Source: Kiritimatiellia bacterium
GTDB lineage: Bacteria > Verrucomicrobiota > Kiritimatiellia > RFP12 > UBA1067
Length of the DNA stretch: 64,000 nt
Direction: 5' to 3'
Assembly (NCBI GenBank): GCA_045598585.1
Contig: JAZLMG010000057.1
Span: 9,832 to 73,831 of the forward strand
In this document: piece by piece, positions 1,881 to 20,346 of the stretch
How positions within the stretch are numbered: position 1 is the first letter of the stretch
How the letters are laid out: each line of letters opens with the position of its first letter
Notes under the pieces: generated by a model
The model's database searches: none
What the model was told of the DNA's origin: nothing
What the model saw: only the letters and a program-made list of their open reading frames with translations
Position numbers and translations under genes: made by a program

Positions 1881-2639
1881 GTGAAGAAGTTCGCCCAAGA
1901 ATGGCTCGACACGTTGGTCGTCGCGATTTCGGTCGCGATGGCCTTTCGTGCTTATTTCTACGAGCCGTTCAATATCCCGACGGGCTCGATGCAGGATACT
2001 TTGTGGGGGTATCATACGGTCGAAGGGGAGAAGATGACCGCGTGGGACATCTTCCCCGTTTCGATTCTCAAGTGGGCCTATACGGGCGAAACTCATGTCG
2101 ACATCGAGGCCGATCGTAGCGGTATGGCGAGAGTGACGCCGCGTAATGACGGCTTCGCCAATATTTCGATCGGCTCCTCAACCAAGATTCATAAACTCCC
2201 GACCGATGCCGCAAAGAATTTGGTCGGCAAGTATTTTACGAAGGGCGATACGGTTTGGGAAGGGACGAAGGCGACGGGAGATTTCATCTTCGTCAATCGC
2301 TGGAAATGGAACTTCCGTAAGCCGCGCGTCGGGGACGTCATGATTTTCTCGACGACCGGCATTAAGGGCCTCGCGCAAGGAACTCACTACATCAAGCGCA
2401 TGAAGGCGACGCCCGGAATGACGTATGAGCTCGAGCATCTCCCGACGGGACCTGACGGAAGTGTAATCGAAGAGCTTCCGAGCGTCGTTACGATGGGCGA
2501 AGACGAATATTTCGCCTGCGGAGACAATTTCAACAACAGTTTTGACAGTCGTTATTGGGGCCCGGTCCCCGGGCGTCTCTTGCGCGGCACCGCAAGCGTC
2601 GTCTTTTGGCCTTTTAACAAGTGGAGGGTGGTAAAATGA
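1881..2639 (+). CDS. lepB: Signal peptidase I
   Basis: GTG start directly after the guaB TAA. N-terminal TM, GSMQDTL (S26 Ser box) and C-terminal GDNFNNSFDSRYWG box. Confidence 0.9.
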   Translation: MKKFAQEWLDTLVVAISVAMAFRAYFYEPFNIPTGSMQDTLWGYHTVEGEKMTAWDIFPVSILKWAYTGETHVDIEADRSGMARVTPRNDGFANISIGSSTKIHKLPTDAAKNLVGKYFTKGDTVWEGTKATGDFIFVNRWKWNFRKPRVGDVMIFSTTGIKGLAQGTHYIKRMKATPGMTYELEHLPTGPDGSVIEELPSVVTMGEDEYFACGDNFNNSFDSRYWGPVPGRLLRGTASVVFWPFNKWRVVK

Positions 2640-5020
2640 GCGAAGAATTGATTAAGGTTCCTTGCCAATTCGGTGAAACCGGTAACTTCCTTTTGGAGCG
2701 TGCGCTCGGCACGGGCGGCATGGGCGGCGTTTATTTAGGCCGCGACAAGATGCTCGATCGTCCTGTCGCCGTTAAGGTCATGCTTAAGGAATACGGCAGC
2801 GACGCTCAGTTCGTCGAGACCTTTAAGAAGGAAGCTCAGGCCGCTGCGAAACTTCTTCACCCGAATATCGCCCAGATCTACTCGTACGGTCTTTCCGACG
2901 GTATGCCCTATATCGCGATGGAACTCGCGACGGGCGGCTCCTTGGAATCGATCATGAAGAAGTCGGGCGCGGGTAAGACCGATGTGCCGCGCGTTATGAA
3001 GATCTGTCAGCAGGTCGCTCAGGCTCTCGCATGTGCCGCGGACTTCGGCCTCGTCCATGGCGACGTCAAGCCCGAGAACATCCTCCTCGATGCGAACGGC
3101 AACGCGAAGCTCGTCGACTTCGGTCTTGCCGCGATGGCGAAGAACACCGACGAAATTTGGGGTACGCCGTTCTACATTTCGCCCGAGAAAGTGAAGAAAG
3201 AGCCCGTCGACTATCGTGCCGATATGTATTCGTTGGGCGGAACTTTGTACCATGCGCTTACCGGCGTTCCTCCGTTTGATGGGAAGGACACGACCGCTGT
3301 CGTTAAGGCGCGCTTCCTTGCCGAAGCGAAAAAGCCCTCGGACGTTCGTCCCGGCCTCTCGCCCCAGATCGACGCGCTCGTCATGAAGATGCTCGCGTTC
3401 AACAAGGAAGATCGCTTCCCGAGCTTTGAAGCGCTTATCGAAGAATTCAAGCAGGTCATGACGACGGGCCTTACCTCGACTCAGAAGGTCGAAGCTTCGA
3501 AGACCGGCGCTGTCGCCGATTCTACTGCGGCTCAAGCGGCCAAGCCTGCCGCAGGTGGCAAGAAGATCATCATGAAAAAGAAGCCCGGCGCGAAAGATGC
3601 CGCGACCGATCCCGAGAAGAAGGAGGGTGAAGTCAATCCCGAAGCGAAGAGCGAAGGGGAGGGCGAGGAAGACGAAGGCGGCAATATCGGTCTTAAGATT
3701 GCCGCGGTTGTCGGCGGCGTAATCGGCATTATCTTGCTCGTCGTCGGAGGACTTTTCTGGTACAAGGCGGCGGAAAAAGCCGCCGAAGAGCGCGCTTATC
3801 AACAGCAGATCGTTAATGGCATCGCCGAAGCGAAAAGCGCTATCAACGCTACTGCCGAAGTCGCCGAGAAGTTCGTAACGGGTCAGGTTCAGCGTCTTGC
3901 CGATGAGGCGATCGAGTCGGCGAAAAAGCTTTCGCCCGAATTCGAAAAGCTCGCGCCCAAGTTTGCCGCGGAAATGGATCCCGGTGAAAACGGCCAGAAG
4001 AAGATGTCCGAAAACGCTCCGCAGCCCGTGAAGGATATGCGCGACCTTTGGGACCGTGCCTATCAGTGCAAGAAGGCCGCCAATAAGCTCGCTGAAGATG
4101 CGAAGGCGATTGCGGCTATTCGTGACGAAGCTCAGAAAATCGACGGAACGACCGAAGAAGATATGCGTAAGCTCGGCGAAATGTCGCGCGATGCCAATGA
4201 TAAGTACGAGGCGATTAAGAGCTCGAAGGAAACTCAGCTCATCACGAAGGAACTCGGCTTCATCAATCAGCGCGGTCCGCGTCTCTTGAAGAGTTCGGCA
4301 GAAACCATGCGTGTCGAAGCTTTGAAGGCCGCCCGTGAAGCTAAGAAGGAAGCCGAAAAGAAGGCGAAGGCCGAGAAGGAAGCCGCTGCCGAAGCCGCCA
4401 AGAAGGCGGAGATCGAAGCGGAAATCTCGGCCGTCAAGGAAAAGTTCCAGGCCCTCGCTTCCGATGGTCGCATTTTCAAGCAACTCGATTGGAAGAGTGC
4501 TATCCGTCAGCTCGAGACCATCAAGGCCGACTTCAAGCATCCTGAATCCGAACAGGCCGCCGATCTTGAAATCGGCAAGGTTAACGTCATGAAGTCTGTC
4601 CAGGATATCTTCATCGCCAACTTGAAGGGCTATAAGTTCGCCAAGTCGAAGCTCAAAAATCACACCATCGTGACGATTGACGAGAAGGATATCGTCCTTG
4701 CAAAGCCCGATGGTGGTCAGATGAAGCTTACTTGGCCGAAGTTCTATCAGGGCTATCATGGTAACCTCAACGAAATCATCATTCAGTATATCGAGAAGGG
4801 TCGCCAAAACTGCAATCCGAAACTTAATTTGAAGCAGTGGTCTGATGGTATGATGGGCGCGGCAATGACGCTTCGTCTCATCTGCAATGATGACCCCGCG
4901 GCAGCTTCGCGCGGTGATTCCATGGCCAAGGAAGTCGGCAAGAAGTTCCCCGATTTGATCGGCAAGCTTAAAGCTTATTTCCCCGATCTCGAATTTGAAG
5001 GTGGCGAAGAAGAAGAATGA
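2636..5020 (+). CDS. Membrane-anchored Hanks-type Ser/Thr protein kinase with large C-terminal coiled-coil domain of unknown function
   Basis: ATG at 2636 overlaps the lepB TGA (AATGA) and has a GGAGGGTGG Shine-Dalgarno. Gly loop GTGGMGGVY, VAVK, catalytic loop HGDVKPEN (non-RD), DFG and SPE. One TM helix (IGLKIAAVVGGVIGIILLVVGGLFWY). The C-terminal ~420 aa are a Lys/Ala/Glu-rich coiled coil. Confidence 0.85.
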   Translation: MSEELIKVPCQFGETGNFLLERALGTGGMGGVYLGRDKMLDRPVAVKVMLKEYGSDAQFVETFKKEAQAAAKLLHPNIAQIYSYGLSDGMPYIAMELATGGSLESIMKKSGAGKTDVPRVMKICQQVAQALACAADFGLVHGDVKPENILLDANGNAKLVDFGLAAMAKNTDEIWGTPFYISPEKVKKEPVDYRADMYSLGGTLYHALTGVPPFDGKDTTAVVKARFLAEAKKPSDVRPGLSPQIDALVMKMLAFNKEDRFPSFEALIEEFKQVMTTGLTSTQKVEASKTGAVADSTAAQAAKPAAGGKKIIMKKKPGAKDAATDPEKKEGEVNPEAKSEGEGEEDEGGNIGLKIAAVVGGVIGIILLVVGGLFWYKAAEKAAEERAYQQQIVNGIAEAKSAINATAEVAEKFVTGQVQRLADEAIESAKKLSPEFEKLAPKFAAEMDPGENGQKKMSENAPQPVKDMRDLWDRAYQCKKAANKLAEDAKAIAAIRDEAQKIDGTTEEDMRKLGEMSRDANDKYEAIKSSKETQLITKELGFINQRGPRLLKSSAETMRVEALKAAREAKKEAEKKAKAEKEAAAEAAKKAEIEAEISAVKEKFQALASDGRIFKQLDWKSAIRQLETIKADFKHPESEQAADLEIGKVNVMKSVQDIFIANLKGYKFAKSKLKNHTIVTIDEKDIVLAKPDGGQMKLTWPKFYQGYHGNLNEIIIQYIEKGRQNCNPKLNLKQWSDGMMGAAMTLRLICNDDPAAASRGDSMAKEVGKKFPDLIGKLKAYFPDLEFEGGEEEE

Positions 5021-6525
5021 GCGAAATAAATTATCTTCAGAAGATTCTGACCTCGACCGTCTACGATGTGGCGGTCGAGACTCCTCTTGAGGAGGCGAAA
5101 CAGCTTTCCAAGAAGTACGGCTGTCGCTTTTTGCTTAAGCGCGAAGACCTCCAACCCGTGCACTCCTTTAAAATCCGCGGCGCTTATAATAAGATGTCGC
5201 AGCTTTCGAAGGAGGAGCTCGATAGGGGCGTCATTTGCGCCTCGGCCGGAAACCATGCCCAAGGCGTCGCGCTTTCGGCACAGAAGCTCGGCGTGAAAGC
5301 GACCATCGTCATGCCTGTTACGACGCCTGAGATCAAAACCTCGGCCGTTAAGTCATATGGCGCGGAGATCGTCTTACACGGTGACTCTTATTCCGATACT
5401 TACGAAGAGCTTCATCGTCAGATCGAAGAGTACGGTTATACCTACATCGCGCCTTTCGATGATCCCGAGGTTATCGCGGGTCAAGGTACGGTCGGTAAGG
5501 AAATCCTCAACCAGGCGGGACGCAAATTGACCGCCGTATTCGTGCCGATCGGGGGCGGCGGTCTTGCTGCCGGTGTCGCCGTTTACGTAAAGAGCGTCAA
5601 TCCTGCCATTAAGGTTTACGGCGTCGAGCCGGATGATTCCGATTGTATGGATCGTTCGATCAAGGCCGGGAAACGCGTCACGCTCGCGAATCCGAGTCTT
5701 TTCGCCGATGGCGTTTGCGTGAAAGAGCCGGGCGTCGAGACATTCCGCCTTTGTCAGAAGTATTTGGACGGCATCGTTCGCGTTTCCACTTCGGAAACTT
5801 GCGCGGCGATTAAGGATGTCTTTGAAGCGACTCGTGCGATTTGTGAACCGGCCGGTGCTCTCGCGCTCGCAGCCGCGAAGAAGATCGCGAAGGAAGGGGA
5901 GACGTACGCCTGTATAATCTCCGGCGCGAACATGAATTTCGACCGCATTCGCTTCGTTTCGGAAGAAACCGAAATCGGCGAAGAGCGTGAAGCTATTTTC
6001 GAAGTTCGCATTCCCGAGAAGCCCGGTGCCTTCAAGGGCTTTATCGAGATGATCGGCAAGCGTTCGATTACCGAATTCAATTACCGCTATTCAGACTCCG
6101 ATCATGCACACATCTTCGTCGGCATGAGCGTAAAGAGTCCCGCCGAACGAGAAGGGCTCAAGAAGCTCTTTGAAGAAGCGGGGTATCGCGCTACCGACTT
6201 AACCGAAGATTCGATTGCCAAAGAGCATATTCGTCACATGGTGGGCGGGCATACGCATGGTGTTGAAGACGAAGTCGTCATGAGCTTCGAGTTCCCGGAA
6301 AAGCCCGGCGCGCTTATGAACTTCTTGACCGTAATTGCCGGCCGCTTTAATATTACCTTATTCCATTATCGCAACCATGGTGCCGATCATGGAAGGGTGC
6401 TCTGCGGTTTCCAGGTGAAAGAAAGCGACCGCGGTGAATTCACCGCGGCCTTGGAACGAATCGGATATCAGTATACCGATGAAACCATGAATCCCGCTTA
6501 TCGTTACTTCTTGGGTAATCGATAA
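5017..6525 (+). CDS. ilvA: Biosynthetic threonine dehydratase
   Basis: 502 aa. PLP-fold SFKIRGA lysine motif plus two C-terminal ACT-like regulatory domains. ATG overlaps the kinase TGA (ATGA). Confidence 0.9.
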   Translation: MSEINYLQKILTSTVYDVAVETPLEEAKQLSKKYGCRFLLKREDLQPVHSFKIRGAYNKMSQLSKEELDRGVICASAGNHAQGVALSAQKLGVKATIVMPVTTPEIKTSAVKSYGAEIVLHGDSYSDTYEELHRQIEEYGYTYIAPFDDPEVIAGQGTVGKEILNQAGRKLTAVFVPIGGGGLAAGVAVYVKSVNPAIKVYGVEPDDSDCMDRSIKAGKRVTLANPSLFADGVCVKEPGVETFRLCQKYLDGIVRVSTSETCAAIKDVFEATRAICEPAGALALAAAKKIAKEGETYACIISGANMNFDRIRFVSEETEIGEEREAIFEVRIPEKPGAFKGFIEMIGKRSITEFNYRYSDSDHAHIFVGMSVKSPAEREGLKKLFEEAGYRATDLTEDSIAKEHIRHMVGGHTHGVEDEVVMSFEFPEKPGALMNFLTVIAGRFNITLFHYRNHGADHGRVLCGFQVKESDRGEFTAALERIGYQYTDETMNPAYRYFLGNR

Positions 6526-6537
6526 GCGAGAAGGGTT

Positions 6538-7476
6538 TTATTCTTTAGGAATCAGCCAATTGGCACCGGAGTCGACGGGGATTGAATAATCCTCGTCGTC
6601 TTCGTTATAATAGTCTTCAAGCTCGTCATCGTCCGTTTCGATATCCTCGATATCGTCATCCTCGGTATCGAGCATATCCTCGAGTTCGTCATCATCAACC
6701 TCGATATCTTCAACGACTTCGAGAATCTGCGGACGTTTTGCGGGTGGACGCTTTACGGCCTTAGGTTGCGTCTGCGGCTTTTTGACGGCCGGTTGCTCCG
6801 CTTCGATCTGCTGCTGGATTTGCTGCTGCTCGAGACGCTGATAGTATTCAGGATAATGCTTGCGGCGATATGCCTCAAGCTCTTGCTCGCGAAGTTGCGC
6901 CTTTTGAGCGGCAATGGCTTCTTCTTGGGCCTTGAGAAGGGCAGCCGTCTTTTCTATACGCTCCTGTTGTTCCTTGAGCTTCTTCTCCATCGCGATCTGC
7001 TCGGGAGAAGGACCTTGGGGCTCCTGGACGACTGGAGCCGGCTGAGGAGGCGGCGGAGCGCTTTGAACGGCCTTTTGTTCCTGGATGAGCGTCTTAAGCG
7101 ACTCGACCATCGCAACGAGCGCCGAGTTGTCCTGAGGCGGCTGAACGACGACGGGCTGAGGCGCCGGCTGCGGTTGGACTACCTGTTGCGCCGGAACTTC
7201 GCGTTCTTTCATCGCGAAATCAATCAAACGATCATTAAGCGCCTGATTACGAAGATTAAGCGTATAGATAACGAAGCTAAGACCGCCGGCAACCGTAAAC
7301 AATATGAACATGAAAAGAATCGTCATCGCCGTCATGCGATGACGAGCTTTCGCTTGTTCCTTATCTACGTATTCCTGGAACGCTTTGAGGATAGGAAAAT
7401 CATCCATCGCGTCAGACGTGTCTCCGTAAAGACTAACGGCAGTGGTGGGCGTTTCGTTTTCGTTATCTATTTCCAT
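6538..7476 (-). CDS. Hypothetical single-pass membrane protein with Pro/Gln-rich region, coiled coil and poly-acidic C-terminal tail
   Basis: 312 aa. One TM helix (ILFMFILFTVAGGLSFVIYTL), PQPAPQP repeats, a QQ/E-rich coiled coil and a terminal DDDELED-rich tail. No known family. Confidence 0.55.
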   Translation of the reverse strand: MEIDNENETPTTAVSLYGDTSDAMDDFPILKAFQEYVDKEQAKARHRMTAMTILFMFILFTVAGGLSFVIYTLNLRNQALNDRLIDFAMKEREVPAQQVVQPQPAPQPVVVQPPQDNSALVAMVESLKTLIQEQKAVQSAPPPPQPAPVVQEPQGPSPEQIAMEKKLKEQQERIEKTAALLKAQEEAIAAQKAQLREQELEAYRRKHYPEYYQRLEQQQIQQQIEAEQPAVKKPQTQPKAVKRPPAKRPQILEVVEDIEVDDDELEDMLDTEDDDIEDIETDDDELEDYYNEDDEDYSIPVDSGANWLIPKE

Positions 7477-7522
7477 ATAACTCCTAGTTTACATAACGGG
7501 CGTTGTACGGGTTAGGTATAAA

Positions 7523-8716
7523 TCACTTTTTAAAGCTCGCCATGGCTCGTTTGAAGCCGTCGGCCGAGCGTTCGATGATCTTTTCGTCTACGGAGCAAGA
7601 CAGTCTCACATAACCCGCGAAACCGAAACCTTTACCGGTAACGACAAGGATCTTTTCTTTCAAGAGCGCATCGACGAACTGCATATCATCTTCGACGGGA
7701 CTCTTCGCAAAGAAATAAAACGCGCCCTTGGGCATCTCGAATTCGATTCCCGCGTCGCTTAAGACCTTGGCCATAAGTTTACGACGACGATCATAGATGT
7801 CGAGATCAACGGTTTCGTTAACGAGCGCTGCAGCGAGGCGTTGTCCGATAACGGGAGCATTGACGAAGCCGAGCGTACGATTGGTGAGCGTAACTGCGGC
7901 AACGAGCGTCTCCTGGTCAGGCATCGCGGGATTGGCGACAAAGTAGCCGATACGTTCACCGGCGAGCGAGAGCGTCTTCGAGAAGCTGCCGAGGACGCAC
8001 GCATACTTCGACAACGGAAGCATCGCCGGCACTTTTGCGCCGTCATAAGCGAACGCACGATAAGGTTCGTCGGAAAGAATGAAAAGGGGTCGTTCCCTTC
8101 TCTCATTCACCTTCTCGACAATTTCCGCAATCGCCTTCAAATCTTCCTCTGCGTAGATGCAGCCGGTCGGATTATTGGGCGAATTGATGATGATCGCACG
8201 AGTCTTATCGGTAATCGCCGCCTCAATCCCCTTCACATCGGGTCTGAATGTCGGAGGAATCGACGGAACCGTCTTCAAGACGCCACCGAAATGACCGCAA
8301 TAAGCGCCGTATTCAACGAAATAAGGCGCAGGAGTAAGGACTTCATCGCCGGGCTCGATAACGGCGCGGAAGAACGAAACGAGCGCTCCTGCCGCGCCGA
8401 CGGTCATGACGATATCCTTCGCCTGAACGGGCGTTTCCTGCTGTTTCGAAAGATATTCGGCCATCTTCTCACGAACGGCGGGAATACCGGCGTTCGGGCA
8501 ATAACCGAGGCCGAGCGGCTGAATCGCCGCGTCAGCGAGCTTGATAAGCTCATCCTTGACCTTCTGAGGCGGCGGGACATCGGGATTGCCGAGCGAGAAA
8601 TCGCAAACGGCATCGGCGCCGAACTCTTTCTTGAGCTCGAGCCCCTTCTCGAACATTTTGCGAATCCAGCTCGACGAAGCCATCGAGTTCTTGATCGCGG
8701 TCGTTACGGTCTGCAT
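7523..8716 (-). CDS. Class I/II PLP-dependent aminotransferase (AlaA/AspC-like)
   Basis: 397 aa. SLGNPDVPP N-terminus, NPTG and the SFSKTLSLAGERIGY lysine motif. Confidence 0.85.
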   Translation of the reverse strand: MQTVTTAIKNSMASSSWIRKMFEKGLELKKEFGADAVCDFSLGNPDVPPPQKVKDELIKLADAAIQPLGLGYCPNAGIPAVREKMAEYLSKQQETPVQAKDIVMTVGAAGALVSFFRAVIEPGDEVLTPAPYFVEYGAYCGHFGGVLKTVPSIPPTFRPDVKGIEAAITDKTRAIIINSPNNPTGCIYAEEDLKAIAEIVEKVNERRERPLFILSDEPYRAFAYDGAKVPAMLPLSKYACVLGSFSKTLSLAGERIGYFVANPAMPDQETLVAAVTLTNRTLGFVNAPVIGQRLAAALVNETVDLDIYDRRRKLMAKVLSDAGIEFEMPKGAFYFFAKSPVEDDMQFVDALLKEKILVVTGKGFGFAGYVRLSCSVDEKIIERSADGFKRAMASFKK

Positions 8717-14377: not shown

Positions 14378-15052
14378 TTATCGCTCGAAGTTGCCGGTTT
14401 CCATGTCGTTCAGCCATTTCTGCCGCGATTCTTCATTCGGCGCGACGAGAATGCCACGATATTTGTACGGCACCCAATTGTTTGTCCAAGTCGTATCTCT
14501 GAAAGGTTCGTCGAAAAGCGCTTGATCGGGCATGATATCATCGATCGACCCCATCTTCCCGTCGGGTCCACGCGAATAGAGAATCGGATGACCGGACTCG
14601 AGGCGCTCGTAAAAATAAGGATTTCCCCAAGGATCGTTTACAATGCGCTTACAATAAGGCCCGTTCCAACCGACGACTTTCGGTGTTATGTTGGTAAGCG
14701 CCGCGAGTCCTTCTTCGGTCGAAGGATAGTCCCCGACATGAAACTTATATCGGCCTAACGCAACCGCCAAAGCATCCATCGACTTTCGCGCGTTGATTTG
14801 GGCTTTCGAGATATGGGCTTTTCCACCGCGTCCCGTAGCCGTGAGCACGAGCGAACCGAGAATCATCATTCCCATAATCATCACCAAGTAAAAGATGAAG
14901 CCACGCTTCATCTTCGGGAGACCTCCCGAGAGCATGTCTTTTTTCTTGGCGAATTCGCGACGGATTCGCTCTTTGGCGATTCGCTTCGAATCCGTTTCCT
15001 TCAGCTTCGTTTTAGCCGGGAATTTCGCCTTAAGTCTGTTGTAATCAACCAT
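14378..15052 (-). CDS. Type II secretion GspG-like pseudopilin-domain protein with non-canonical N-terminus
   Basis: DYPSTEEGLAAL and NDPWGNPYFY GspG signatures. The N-terminal helix starts MKRGFIFYLV and lacks the conserved Glu+5. The true start may be MKRGF at 14911. The longer ORF adds a 47-aa basic extension. Confidence 0.6.
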   Translation of the reverse strand: MVDYNRLKAKFPAKTKLKETDSKRIAKERIRREFAKKKDMLSGGLPKMKRGFIFYLVMIMGMMILGSLVLTATGRGGKAHISKAQINARKSMDALAVALGRYKFHVGDYPSTEEGLAALTNITPKVVGWNGPYCKRIVNDPWGNPYFYERLESGHPILYSRGPDGKMGSIDDIMPDQALFDEPFRDTTWTNNWVPYKYRGILVAPNEESRQKWLNDMETGNFER

Positions 15053-16355: not shown

Positions 16356-17074
16356 TAAGACAAATATTCGATATTGCCCATTTCTTTGCCGCGAATCGGG
16401 CTCTCCTCGAGTCCGAGGAGATCGAGTTTCAAGGTTTCAGTCGCGAACTTGACGATTTTATCGCGAGCTTCCAAACGAAGCTTTTCGTCTTTAACGAGAC
16501 CTCCAGGGGCATTGCCCTTCCCGACTTCGAATTGGGGCTTGATCAAAGCGACGATTTCTCCCCCGGGTGCGAGTACGTCGTTGATCGGGGGAAGAATCAG
16601 CTCGAGAGAAATGAAAGAAACGTCAGTAACCGCCAAAGTCGGCACTTCCGGCAAATCCTCCGACTGCATATAGCGGGCATTGTAATTCTCTTTTACCCAA
16701 ACGCGCGGATCCGCTCTAAGTTTGTAAGCGAGTTGGTTGGTGCCGACATCGACCGCCATAACCATCTTGGCGCCGTTTTGCAAAAGGCAATCGGTAAAGC
16801 CGCCCGTCGAAGAGCCGACATCAAGACAAATCTTCCCTTCGGCGGAAAGCGTTTTGAACTTATCAAAGGCGCCGGCCATCTTCTCTCCGCCGCGAGACAC
16901 GAATCGAGGCGGCGCTTCGATTTCGAGAATCGCGTCGCTCTCGACTTGCTTGGAGGCCTTGAACTCGACTTGACCGTTGACTCTTACCTTCCCCTCCATA
17001 ACGAGGGCTTGGGCACGCGTACGACTTTCCGCAAGCCCCGAATCGACCAAAAGAACATCGAGTCGTTTCTTCAC
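16340..17074 (-). CDS. tlyA: TlyA-family rRNA 2'-O-methyltransferase
   Basis: N-terminal S4 domain (MKKRLDVLLVDSGLAESRTRAQALV) plus an FtsJ-like methyltransferase domain (LDVGSSTGGFTD). Confidence 0.8.
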   Translation of the reverse strand: MKKRLDVLLVDSGLAESRTRAQALVMEGKVRVNGQVEFKASKQVESDAILEIEAPPRFVSRGGEKMAGAFDKFKTLSAEGKICLDVGSSTGGFTDCLLQNGAKMVMAVDVGTNQLAYKLRADPRVWVKENYNARYMQSEDLPEVPTLAVTDVSFISLELILPPINDVLAPGGEIVALIKPQFEVGKGNAPGGLVKDEKLRLEARDKIVKFATETLKLDLLGLEESPIRGKEMGNIEYLSYWRKP

Positions 17075-18174
17075 TTTTCTTCCTTATCGAGGAAAGTCAT
17101 TTTGATGATATCCGATTTCGCGAAGCCGCGCTGAATACCCATCTTGACCTCGACCATTACCTGTTCGGAATCTGCCGAGACATAAACGCCGCGATATTTC
17201 CCATTCGGCGTCTCGATTTCCACATTCGGCGTGAAGACGCGGCGCAGAGTGACATTGGCCTTAGATGTCTTCGATTTCTGAATCTTCGGATGACGAGTCG
17301 AGTTCGCGTAGCCGTCTTTGGAGATCGTAAGAGTATGCTCGCCTTCGAGCAAGTTCTCGATCGCGAGAATCTCGCTGAAGCCCTCGCTTTCGCTTCCGAT
17401 TTCTTTCGTCGTGCCGACGACTCGCCCGTCGATACTGACTTGAGCTCCGGCAGGAAGCGTACGGACCTCAAGGCGACCCATGACATTCGAAAGACGAAAT
17501 TCTTCACTTACCGAAGCTCCGTTCCCGACCTTAATCACGCGAGATACCGGCGCATAGCCCTCGATTTCGGCGCGAACATTGTACTCCCCGCTTTCGATAC
17601 CGGTCAAGACAAGCGGTGATTTGCCGCGGAAGACATTATCGATATAAATACGGCCACCCTCGGGAAGCGTCGTCAATTGGAGCGTACCCGCCAAAGGCTG
17701 AAGCTTCAGATAGAGATTTTGAACTTCACCCGCGCCGAGCTTAAGTTCGCGCGTTTCCGGCTTGAAACCTTCGTGCTTAACGGTAACTGAAACGTAACCT
17801 TTGGCGATACCGGAAAGCGAAACGGGCGTTTTTCCGCGATCAAGGCCATTAACGATTACCGAAGCTCCCGCAGGCTCCGTCTTGATTTCAAGCGCGCCCG
17901 AATCGAGCACCAACTTCTCATTCACGACTACCGGCTCTCGACCATTGAGAAATCTTACGTCGATTCGTTTCGATTGATAGCCGTTCTTACTTAAGGTAAG
18001 ACGGTGGAGTTCGCCGATTTCAAGAATGGTGATAAGGCGAGGCGTTGCGCCGAGATTAACGCCATCTCGTGAGATTTCCGCGCCGCTGGGCTCGGAAGAA
18101 ACGAGCAAAAGGCCCGATTCCGCTTGAGCGAACAAGCAGAGCGCGGCGAAAAACAACGCTAAAAACTTCTTCAT
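17071..18174 (-). CDS. Secreted PEGA-domain repeat protein
   Basis: Signal peptide MKKFLALFFAALCLFAQA and four or five PEGA-like repeats (e.g. EPAGASVIVNG, LPEGGRIYIDN, LPAGAQVSIDG). Confidence 0.7.
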   Translation of the reverse strand: MKKFLALFFAALCLFAQAESGLLLVSSEPSGAEISRDGVNLGATPRLITILEIGELHRLTLSKNGYQSKRIDVRFLNGREPVVVNEKLVLDSGALEIKTEPAGASVIVNGLDRGKTPVSLSGIAKGYVSVTVKHEGFKPETRELKLGAGEVQNLYLKLQPLAGTLQLTTLPEGGRIYIDNVFRGKSPLVLTGIESGEYNVRAEIEGYAPVSRVIKVGNGASVSEEFRLSNVMGRLEVRTLPAGAQVSIDGRVVGTTKEIGSESEGFSEILAIENLLEGEHTLTISKDGYANSTRHPKIQKSKTSKANVTLRRVFTPNVEIETPNGKYRGVYVSADSEQVMVEVKMGIQRGFAKSDIIKMTFLDKEEK

Positions 18175-18175
18175 C

Positions 18176-19543
18176 TTATCGCGCTCCTTTGATTCGATTG
18201 GTGACGTCCAAAAGTTTACGTTCCGCCGTCTTATGACGTTCGTCTTCGGGATCGGGAATCATCTCCATCAAGAGACGAAGTTCGGTTTTCGCGTCTTCCC
18301 AATGGCTCGTATTTATCGCACGATCGGCCTTGAAAAGCTGCTCTTTATAACGCTTATTAAGCTCATCATTCGCTGTACGCAAATTCTCACGCACTTTATT
18401 GAACCACTCGGGTTTGGGGTTGATCGTGTCGAGATAGAAGATCGACTCGTTAAAGGCCTTGATCGCCATAGCGACATTGCCGAATTCCACATCTCTTTCA
18501 TCCCACTTCGATTCGCCGAGTTCATAAGCGCCGAACGAGAGCTCCAAGAGCTTTTCTTTCGGGTATTGAATCGACCAGATGCCGAGTTCATTATTGACGA
18601 AAGTCTCGAGGTTTTCTCTAAGTTCGCGAAACGCTTCCGGCTCGGGGGCGTTCTCGATATAACACTCTTTAATAAGGCCATCGATGTTGAAGCTGAGTTT
18701 GAAACTCTTAAGCTCGTTGATCGCCATCGAGCTTTCTCCCGCATATTCCTTCTCCAAGGTTTTGACGCTATCGGAAGCGAGCATGTCCGAGAGCCGTACG
18801 AGCGCCTTGTCGGCGAGCTTCGAACTCTTTCGGACATGACGATTCGCCGCGGGGACATCATCCAATTCCAAATTGATTTTGCCCGTTTCCTCGACAACGA
18901 TATGATAGCGGAAGATGCGGCTGGAATCGGCATCGATCTTCTCGTATTCAAGCGCTTTCAATTTCGAATGAGCATCAGCATCCGTGTTTGCAAGCGAGGA
19001 AATATCGGACTTTTTATCTTCAACAGGCACCATCAAAAGCGCAACTGCCGCGAGAATCATCAAGAGCGCGACGCCGAACCAAACGAAATTAAGCCATATC
19101 GGTCGCTCGGCTTTCTCCGTCTTTTCCCCGGTCTCATCGCCCGACTTCGATTCTTCCTTCTGAAGTCCAAGATCGATCTTATTGTCGATTTTCGCTTTCG
19201 ATTCGGGCTGAGGAAGCTTCATCTCAATCGGTTTCGGTTTATCGGAATCGACCACGGTCAAAGTCGTATTGCCGACTTCGATGATATCGCCGCTATTAAG
19301 CGTTTTCGTCTTCGCGCCGATCGATTCGCCGTTTACTCGCGTGCCGTTCGCACTGGCAAGATCCGTGACATTCAACTCCCCGAGCGCGGTCAATTCGAAA
19401 AGACAATGATTACGCGAAAGTTCTTCATCAGTTACATGAATATCGTTCGAAGACGAACGTCCAAGGCGCATGCCCATAGACGTCACCTTGAAGATACGTC
19501 CCTTCTCTTCGCCGGAATCAAGTCTTAAGAAAAGTTCGGTCAT
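18176..19543 (-). CDS. FHA-domain membrane protein with C-terminal domain of unknown function
   Basis: Start at MTELFL (M26 of the ORF), abutting the upstream stop. N-terminal FHA domain (GRSSSNDIHVTDEELSRNHCLF...NGTRVNG), one TM helix (WLNFVWFGVALLMILAAVALLMV) and about 250 aa of unknown domain. Confidence 0.75.
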   Translation of the reverse strand: MTELFLRLDSGEEKGRIFKVTSMGMRLGRSSSNDIHVTDEELSRNHCLFELTALGELNVTDLASANGTRVNGESIGAKTKTLNSGDIIEVGNTTLTVVDSDKPKPIEMKLPQPESKAKIDNKIDLGLQKEESKSGDETGEKTEKAERPIWLNFVWFGVALLMILAAVALLMVPVEDKKSDISSLANTDADAHSKLKALEYEKIDADSSRIFRYHIVVEETGKINLELDDVPAANRHVRKSSKLADKALVRLSDMLASDSVKTLEKEYAGESSMAINELKSFKLSFNIDGLIKECYIENAPEPEAFRELRENLETFVNNELGIWSIQYPKEKLLELSFGAYELGESKWDERDVEFGNVAMAIKAFNESIFYLDTINPKPEWFNKVRENLRTANDELNKRYKEQLFKADRAINTSHWEDAKTELRLLMEMIPDPEDERHKTAERKLLDVTNRIKGAR

Positions 19544-19545
19544 GA

Positions 19546-20346
19546 TCAAAACGCTCCTTTCATGGCCTGCAATAGTAAAGGTCCAAGCAATATGATGAAT
19601 ACTGCGGGGAAGATGCAAAGAAGCAAGGGCCCGAGCATTTTAACGGGAGCTTGCGCCGCCAAGTTTTCCGCGCGGTCAAATCTGCGCGAGTGAAGCTGTT
19701 CCGATTGAATACGAAGAATCGTACCGATGGAGACGCCGAGTTCATCGGACTGAATCAAGGAATTCGCAACCGCTTTAAGATTCTGTTCTTTGACGCGCTC
19801 GGCCATATTCTTAAGCGCATCTTTACGCGTTACGCCGATTTGGATTTCTTTCGTCATTCGAAGGAGCTCTTCGTTTAAAGGATCCATTCTGCGCGACTTG
19901 CAATTACGCTGAAGAGCGCTGATAAAGTCCATGCCCGCTTCGACCGAAAGAGTCAGAATGTCGAGAACGAACGGAAGCGACTTCATGATCGAAAGATGCC
20001 GCGCTTTGATCGAGCGATAAAGCCAAAGATCAGGGAAAATCCAACCGAGCATCAACTTAATCGCGAGATATTCTTCGGCGGAAAGCAAACCTTCGAAACC
20101 GGCCTGAATCAAAAGCGAAGAATATTTCGCACGAAGTTCACTGAAGCCCTTCCCCTTAACGAGTTTGAAGAAGTTCGGCGTGAGCGGAAGGAGTATTTTA
20201 AACAATAGCGGAATCGACCGTTCAGCTTTGCGACCATCGGCTAATGTAACGTAGGTGACCTCGGAAGCGACCGAGACCACATAGCCTATAAAGAGCGCGG
20301 CAGCAAGCGCCCAAACGGCCATCGATGCTATCGCCAAAATACTCAT
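19546..20346 (-). CDS. Type II secretion system F-family (TadC/TadB-like) inner-membrane protein
   Basis: 266 aa with a single T2SSF domain flanked by TM helices (N-terminal MSILAIASMAVWALAAALFIGYVV, C-terminal MLGPLLLCIFPAVFIILLGPLLL). Confidence 0.6.
   Translation of the reverse strand: MSILAIASMAVWALAAALFIGYVVSVASEVTYVTLADGRKAERSIPLLFKILLPLTPNFFKLVKGKGFSELRAKYSSLLIQAGFEGLLSAEEYLAIKLMLGWIFPDLWLYRSIKARHLSIMKSLPFVLDILTLSVEAGMDFISALQRNCKSRRMDPLNEELLRMTKEIQIGVTRKDALKNMAERVKEQNLKAVANSLIQSDELGVSIGTILRIQSEQLHSRRFDRAENLAAQAPVKMLGPLLLCIFPAVFIILLGPLLLQAMKGAF

Follow-up and report, generated by a model that had tools for sequence, protein, structure and literature searches.

A putative non-RD Hanks-type receptor kinase with a taxon-restricted ectodomain, encoded beside lepB in Kiritimatiellia

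The PASTA kinases PknB, PrkC and StkP (NF033483) combine an N-terminal Hanks-type kinase domain, one transmembrane (TM) helix and an extracytoplasmic sensor, and their genes lie within housekeeping operons. Known examples of such a location are actinobacterial pknB, which is part of the division cluster, and prkC of Bacillus subtilis. In Mycobacterium tuberculosis, PknG has no arginine in front of the catalytic aspartate, which implies a regulation independent of activation-loop phosphorylation; kinases of this non-RD (lacking the arginine-aspartate pair) type are active enzymes. The membrane Hanks kinase PpkA of Pseudomonas aeruginosa possesses a periplasmic domain, and its FHA target Fha1 is tied to a secretion machine, the type VI secretion system (T6SS). 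Here, we describe a gene (positions 2636-5020, + strand) for a putative non-RD Hanks-type transmembrane Ser/Thr kinase of 794 aa, located between lepB and ilvA in a stretch of 64,000 nt from a gut-type Kiritimatiellia bacterium (assembly GCA_045598585.1, contig JAZLMG010000057.1, positions 9,832 to 73,831 of the forward strand), which is referred to as the window in the following. An earlier note on this DNA had regarded a Hanks kinase in a housekeeping operon as unusual, a view that does not stand in the light of pknB and prkC. With moderate confidence, we favor the reading that the protein is a catalytically competent non-RD receptor kinase which is coupled to lepB, is regulated by its ectodomain and would report an envelope or secretion signal to cytoplasmic targets.

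The kinase domain comprises residues 21-267 (2696-3436, + strand) and matched Pkinase (PF00069, E-value 8.7e-46) with 156.9 bits in comparison to a gathering cutoff of 31.7. The closest solved domains are those of M. tuberculosis PknE, PknB and PknA (1e-46 to 1e-41), and StkP was found as well. The glycine-rich loop (GTGGMGG), K47, E66, the catalytic loop HGDVKPEN (141-148), DFG (161-163) and SPE (182-184) were recognized, and the short activation loop bears T171. The description of the protein in the earlier note as a membrane Hanks kinase with HGD (141-143) for HRD, SPE for APE and one TM helix was therewith borne out. Relative to PknB of M. tuberculosis, about 6 residues are missing from the activation segment, and a threonine (serine in clade B, see below) is kept at the position of the second phospho-threonine of PknB.

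A scan of the GTDB species representatives gave 80 loci. The related ones (L001-L052), 52 kinase loci from Kiritimatiellia and from metagenome-assembled genomes (MAGs) labelled Lentisphaerae/Victivallales, were grouped by similarity and N-terminal sequence into clade A (L001-L026, L030 and L042; kinase domain 69-82% identical to that of the window), clade B (L027-L038; 56-65%) and clade C (L039-L052; 47-56%), the last of which carries an extra N-terminal Zn-ribbon (CxxC). Throughout these three clades the arginine of the RD pair is replaced: all loci show HGD, with one HSD exception, and the next-best loci, from L053 onwards, encode ordinary HRD kinases of other phyla. Across 16 diverse full-length homologues, no variation was seen in the glycine-rich loop, K47, E66, H141-G142-D143, K145, N148, D161-F162-G163, T171, T177 and E184. 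Serine and alanine interchange freely among the relatives in the SPE/APE motif, of which this is the only variable position. Since the non-RD state is fixed family-wide together with intact catalytic residues, the protein is, as judged from its conservation, a conserved non-RD kinase and not a decaying pseudokinase, and it is a real and probably active membrane kinase. The loss of catalytic residues that the earlier note had named as the sign of a pseudokinase was not found.

The best protein matches are kinases of 765-930 aa, whose source label, in the few cases where one is given, reads "Kiritimatiellae bacterium"; the majority stem from ENA, JGI and Logan assemblies. An exact-sequence look-up returned no record for the kinase of the window. 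A protein with 94% identity (P0001) is encoded in the same context of lepB, kinase, ilvA, a convergent orf312, an aminotransferase and an M18 peptidase. Five contigs with the Kiritimatiellia-type guaB-lepB-kinase locus (L007, L012, L013, L014 and L035) bear the names Alistipes onderdonkii, Faecalibacterium sp. CAG:74, Azospirillum sp. 51_20, Lachnospira hominis and Lachnospiraceae in their titles, for which mislabelling of the MAG bins is the probable explanation. Identities of the kinase to anti-phage kinases (MADS6, BREX PglW) were also considered and were rejected, as the scores are far below the curated cutoffs (MADS6 135 vs 460).

Two further conserved segments lie between the kinase domain and the membrane. 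Just past the kinase domain, a near-invariant V-x-[TS]-[TS]-G-L motif occurs at residues 274-279 (3455-3472), and a conserved acidic patch, EEEEEGG, is found just before the TM helix. Each is a candidate site of autophosphorylation or docking. The single TM helix itself (approximately residues 352-376; 3689-3763, + strand) lies within the one hydrophobic segment of the protein (residues 348-380), and the motif GxLxW[YF] at its end is present in 119 of 120 homologues.

Behind the membrane helix, a predicted periplasmic stalk of four long helices (3764-4408, + strand) is rich in Ala, Lys and Glu (20%, 14% and 13% in residues 377-591, ca. 215 aa), followed by a C-terminal globular domain of 203 aa (CTD; 4409-5017, + strand). 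An AlphaFold2 model of residues 378-794, built on a 16-sequence alignment, reached a pLDDT (predicted local distance difference test) of 90.4 and a predicted template modelling score (pTM) of 0.57, and showed helices of 61, 38, 22 and 79 residues in front of a compact domain. The CTD modelled alone was predicted with higher values (pLDDT 92.9, pTM 0.87); its three first helices lead into a 3-strand meander, after which another five helices follow. In relatives, helix 1 is succeeded by an Ala/Pro-rich insert that varies and can reach about 150 aa; in the kinase of the window it is nearly absent. The Lys/Ala/Glu-rich helices ending in a small globular domain, which the earlier note had proposed, are thus supported by both composition and model.

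The remote-homology searches which that note had suggested for this region returned no relatives of known structure or family. Residues 378-794 contain neither PASTA repeats nor any other Pfam domain, and a sequence-profile search of the PDB with the ectodomain gave no match. Foldseek searches against the PDB with the whole ectodomain and with the CTD revealed nothing at E<=1e-3 (best template modelling score 0.29), and no CTD match at E<=1e-3 was obtained against BFVD. A profile of the CTD matched 144 cluster representatives among 1.84 billion. The majority of these are the C-termini of HGD kinases, those of the Zn-ribbon type included, and several carriers have no kinase domain but bear a signal peptide or lipobox. 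The CTD represents a small, taxon-restricted extracytoplasmic domain family without known fold relative.

The location of this domain is indicated by two kinds of relatives. Beside the secreted kinase-free CTD proteins, one clade-B locus (L032, 4534-7659) contains a kinase gene that is naturally split inside a low-complexity Lys/Asp-rich linker; the distal open reading frame (ORF) of 497 aa carries the remaining ectodomain behind a canonical signal peptide of its own (SAFA/K). Because of these proteins the CTD is placed outside the cytoplasm, and they show it to be an autonomous module. The single TM helix likewise puts stalk and CTD on the outer side of the membrane. The kinase-free proteins among the profile matches (P0151, P0163, P0198, P0203 and P0244) are putative lipoproteins or secreted proteins, and the CTD also occurs N-terminally in proteins of ca. 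460 aa. It is fused to Sel1 repeats in P0244 and lies beside a DnaJ-type CXXCXGXG region in P0163. A disulfide between C478 and C750, which are invariant in close homologues, was considered and rejected: the wider CTD family shows Cys/Tyr, Ser/Cys and Val/Cys pairs at these positions, without covariation.

The second feature on which the favored reading depends is the pairing with lepB. This gene lies directly upstream of the kinase gene in every clade-A locus (28) and in 6 clade-B loci, 34 in total, and in 24 of these 34 the two genes overlap as ATGA. Among the remaining ones, 8 have spacings of 24-78 nt, in L037 the start could not be placed, and L016 carries a 1.2-kb insertion. Upstream of lepB, 26 clade-A loci contain guaB, which is missing there throughout clade B. 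The lepB-kinase adjacency survives the replacement of both flanks, including the clade-B loci without guaB, and is still seen where the identity has dropped to about 40% in LepB and to 24-32% in the ectodomain. From this distribution, lepB and the kinase gene appear as the stable core of the locus, guaB as an addition of clade A, and ilvA as a lineage-variable tail. The synteny of guaB, lepB, kinase and ilvA proposed in the earlier note is supported in part: lepB is kept in 34 loci and guaB in 26, and ilvA follows the kinase gene in only half of the close loci (14 of 28).

In the window, four contiguous ORFs on the + strand occupy the first 6.5 kb. The gene guaB (384-1880) encodes an IMP dehydrogenase with a CBS pair (IMPDH 8.8e-143; TIGR01302, 532 bits vs cutoff 481) and lepB (1881-2639) a signal peptidase I (Peptidase_S26 1e-24; TIGR02227, 75.3 bits vs cutoff 47). 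After the kinase gene follows ilvA (5017-6525) for a biosynthetic threonine ammonia-lyase (PALP and two Thr_dehydrat_C domains; TIGR01124, 743 bits vs cutoff 411). The Ser36/Lys172 dyad and the GDNxxxSxDSRYWG box of LepB are intact and invariant in 35 of 35 homologues. As described in the earlier note, the GTG of lepB at 1881 directly abuts the TAA of guaB (1878-1880), and both junctions of the kinase gene are ATGA overlaps, formed by the TGA of lepB (2637-2639) with the kinase ATG at 2636 and by the TGA of the kinase gene (5018-5020) with the ilvA ATG at 5017. The gaps at the three junctions are therefore 0, -4 and -4 nt. Both starts are well placed: no in-frame start other than the GTG at 1881 precedes the conserved EWLDTLVVAIS segment of LepB, and the kinase begins at ATG 2636, preceded by GGAGG at a distance of 7 nt, and not at GTG 2621, as the homologues all open with MSE(E/Q)LI.

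Upstream of these genes, a terminator-like intrinsic hairpin (250-292, + strand) with a 17-bp stem and a U run would end the preceding gene and insulate the guaB unit (dG -28.3 kcal/mol, z -5.8; none of 200 shuffles folded equally well). A promoter-like site (TTGCTT-17 nt-TATAAT; 316-344, + strand), 40 nt upstream of the guaB ATG, is a candidate for the operon promoter; its -35 hexamer TTGCTT matches 3 of 6 positions, and the site is below the scan threshold and was picked out by reading the sequence only. Within guaB-lepB-kinase-ilvA, the scan gave no internal terminator-like or promoter-like matches above shuffle expectation, and an Rfam scan of the guaB leader and the operon found no riboswitch or known RNA element. 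With the abutting or overlapping junctions and the upstream terminator- and promoter-like sites, the four genes look like one insulated transcription unit. Long ORFs also occur on the opposite strand, at 246-2096 (-; 616 aa) opposite guaB and lepB and at 2735-4807 (-; 690 aa) opposite the kinase gene. Given the strong family matches of the sense frames, these are apparently shadow ORFs.

These junctions are, however, not peculiar to the kinase locus, and it is here that the most serious alternative has to be weighed. According to this, the kinase is real, and its context results from genome compaction and phylogenetic inertia, without any functional tie to guaB, lepB or ilvA. In the window, 4-nt overlaps occur at 12 of 53 same-strand junctions (23%), so that tight coupling is the default packing of a compact genome, and the kinase gene, which the earlier note calls "translationally locked", follows a genome-wide habit. 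Unrelated housekeeping genes are chained alike elsewhere, for example in tlyA-PEGA-FHA-T2SSF-metG-hisF-hisH. The limited occurrence of ilvA behind the kinase gene and the loss of guaB in clade B and of lepB in part of the family also fit this explanation. What it does not readily explain is a lepB-kinase pair that outlives both of its flanks, mostly with the same 4-nt overlap, and is kept at the low LepB and ectodomain identities given above. We regard an origin of the pairing in compaction and inertia as less probable than the favored reading.

Several observations weigh against the favored reading. As many as 41 of the 53 same-strand junctions overlap or are at most 20 nt apart; in such a very compact genome neighbors are co-transcribed by default, from which little can be learned about function. 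An upstream lepB is missing from 4 loci of clade B and from each of the 14 loci of the Zn-ribbon type (clade C). LepB itself is an unlikely substrate of the kinase, because it is almost without a cytoplasmic portion. Furthermore, among the eight ORFs of the window that could not be recognized by eye, a Pfam search gave no match to a PP2C phosphatase, and tblastn of the window revealed no second copy of the kinase, of the FHA protein described below or of the CTD.

A second alternative starts from the genes downstream. Here, the kinase would regulate amino-acid, and especially threonine, metabolism, and the downstream pyridoxal phosphate (PLP) enzymes would be phosphorylated or co-regulated. 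Among the 28 close (clade A) loci, the kinase gene is followed by ilvA in 14 and by a class I/II aminotransferase, homologous to the one encoded at 7523-8716 of the window, in 9, and thrC (TIGR00260, 296 bits) lies directly downstream in three loci of the Zn-ribbon type (L039-L041). The remaining 5 close loci have other genes at this position, one of them with an inverted aminotransferase, and the downstream neighbors vary by clade: a ThiF-like gene, genes for secreted proteins or a convergent gene may take this place, and in the more distant clades a Na/solute symporter gene or thrC. In addition, a periplasmic sensor is not obviously required for such a function. This alternative is consequently considered quite improbable. 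Irrespective of this, a PLP enzyme of amino-acid metabolism is a frequent downstream neighbor of the kinase gene (ilvA, aminotransferase, thrC).

In the window, the region behind ilvA (6538-8716, - strand) contains an aminotransferase gene (7523-8716; NF005305, 533 bits) and orf312, which encodes a Pro/Gln/acid-rich TM protein; no family match was obtained for orf312. Both genes form a block that is located directly downstream of the kinase gene, and on the same strand, in 8 relatives. As the block is inverted in the window, with ilvA in between, a local rearrangement is indicated. A hairpin at 6565-6609 (+ strand), 48 nt past the ilvA stop and within the 3' end of the convergent orf312, could serve as the terminator of the + strand unit. 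Its Rfam match to mir-598 is due to chance (28.5 bits vs a gathering score of 69).

A third explanation, which would account for the gene pairing, is that LepB cleaves the kinase behind its N-in/C-out TM helix and sheds the ectodomain. The TM helix has the orientation of a signal anchor, stand-alone secreted CTD proteins exist, and the distal ectodomain of L032 is separately encoded with an AFA/K signal peptide. Against this, a conserved small residue at -3 is lacking in the segment behind the helix (WY[QK]V[AS]D), no conserved AXA-like site was found, and the hydrophobic segment of about 25-30 residues is too long for a cleavable h-region. A cleavage by LepB is therefore very unlikely. The weakest alternative, a pseudokinase or scaffold in which HGD and SPE reflect a loss of function, can draw on the missing RD arginine, the altered APE motif and a degenerate paralogue type in the family (P0180, whose kinase domain has no HxD motif), but it is most improbable in view of the invariant catalytic residues (glycine-rich loop, K47, E66, D143, K145, N148, D161 and E184), the activity known of non-RD kinases and the alternation of serine and alanine at the APE motif.

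The reading of a lepB-coupled, ectodomain-regulated receptor kinase thus remains the one we prefer. The kinase gene would share a transcript with lepB, and the translation of the two would be coupled. Its activity might be set, like that of other non-RD kinases, by the state or the oligomerization of the ectodomain rather than by phosphorylation of the activation loop. It would then transmit an envelope or secretion-related signal from the periplasm to cytoplasmic targets by Ser/Thr phosphorylation, and guaB and ilvA would be lineage-specific co-expressed neighbors and not obligate partners. In the loci whose kinase domain is 69-82% identical to that of the window, the identity is 42-74% for LepB and 33-54% for the CTD region. 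The kinase is accordingly among the most conserved proteins of the locus, which suggests a central regulator and not an accessory sensor.

In a further-reaching version, which we consider unlikely, LepB and the kinase would form a dedicated secretion/envelope surveillance module of Kiritimatiellia. The periplasmic CTD, with its novel fold and on its long helical stalk, would monitor the secretory load or unprocessed preproteins, possibly in contact with LepB, and would switch the non-RD kinase, which in turn would retune growth metabolism through the synthesis of GTP and amino acids. Gut and rumen Kiritimatiellota are thought to depend on secreted glycan-degrading enzymes. Should this version be true, it would reveal a new class of sensory domain and a new logic from export to Ser/Thr signaling in heavily secreting polysaccharide degraders. 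A functional lepB-kinase pairing would link protein export to phospho-signaling in gut and rumen bacteria; otherwise, the locus merely adds another orphan receptor kinase to those known, within a compact genome. The interest of the locus therefore lies in the taxon-restricted, unmatched periplasmic domain and in the conserved pairing with lepB, and not in the overlaps or the non-RD state alone. Full-text literature searches on Kiritimatiellota kinases, on non-RD bacterial kinases and on signal peptidase together with Hanks kinases gave nothing relevant, and Ser/Thr signaling in Kiritimatiellota appears to be essentially unstudied.

A possible partner had been seen by the earlier note in an FHA-domain membrane protein (18176-19543, - strand). 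The protein indeed possesses a genuine FHA domain (PF00498, 2.7e-15) and one TM segment, and its translation shows the motifs GR...SRNH...NGT, fitting the known FHA consensus for phosphothreonine binding. It also weakly matches YscD, GltG and TagH-type FHA modules of envelope machines. A conserved genomic link to the kinase was not found: the two genes are on opposite strands and separated by 13 kb, the FHA gene is flanked by a T2SS-F-like gene and the gene of a four-PEGA lipoprotein within a dense series of minus-strand genes, and no FHA gene was found within 6 kb of any kinase locus of the HGD family. The FHA protein is hence a generic candidate for a reader or substrate only and not demonstrably part of the kinase system. 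It belongs to a set of isolated genes at 14378-15052 (-) and 17071-20346 (-) which, dispersed among housekeeping genes, encode a type II secretion system (T2SS) G pseudopilin, the T2SS-F-like protein, the FHA-TM protein and the lipoprotein with four PEGA domains. These type II secretion/type IV pilus-like genes have neither an ATPase nor a secretin gene nearby.

In comparison to the described systems, the kinase of the window resembles chlamydial PknD (NF009651) as a membrane kinase of the PVC (Planctomycetes-Verrucomicrobia-Chlamydiae) superphylum with a similar length (ca. 930 aa in PknD). The match is confined to the kinase region, with 118 bits vs a cutoff of 839, and PknD belongs to a different family. 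With the PASTA kinases the protein shares the N-terminal Hanks kinase, the one TM helix, the extracytoplasmic sensor and the housekeeping operon, and their kinase domains are its best sequence matches after PknE (1e-45). It reaches 285 bits in NF033483, in which the cutoff is 450. PASTA repeats are absent, and HGD and an activation loop about 6 residues shorter stand in place of the HRD type of the PASTA kinases. Unlike these, the protein also has no adjacent PP2C phosphatase, and its host is a diderm PVC bacterium. Its lack of PASTA repeats, its non-RD state and its scores below every NCBIfam cutoff place it outside the PknB/PrkC/StkP families.

M. tuberculosis PknE (PDB 2h34) provides the closest solved kinase domain (1.2e-46 over residues 15-263) and is likewise a single-pass membrane kinase, but it is of the RD type, its extracellular domain differs, and it has no linkage to lepB. 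PknG shares the missing arginine in front of the catalytic aspartate; it differs in that it is soluble, carries rubredoxin and TPR modules and comes from an unrelated lineage. In PpkA the periplasmic domain is of the vWA type, and the gene lies inside the T6SS cluster, adjoining those of the FHA target and a phosphatase, whereas in the window 13 kb separate kinase and FHA gene, without a conserved link between them. The kinase can nevertheless be likened to the PpkA-Fha1 pair, as it too possesses a periplasmic domain and could signal to an FHA protein that is associated with a secretion machine.

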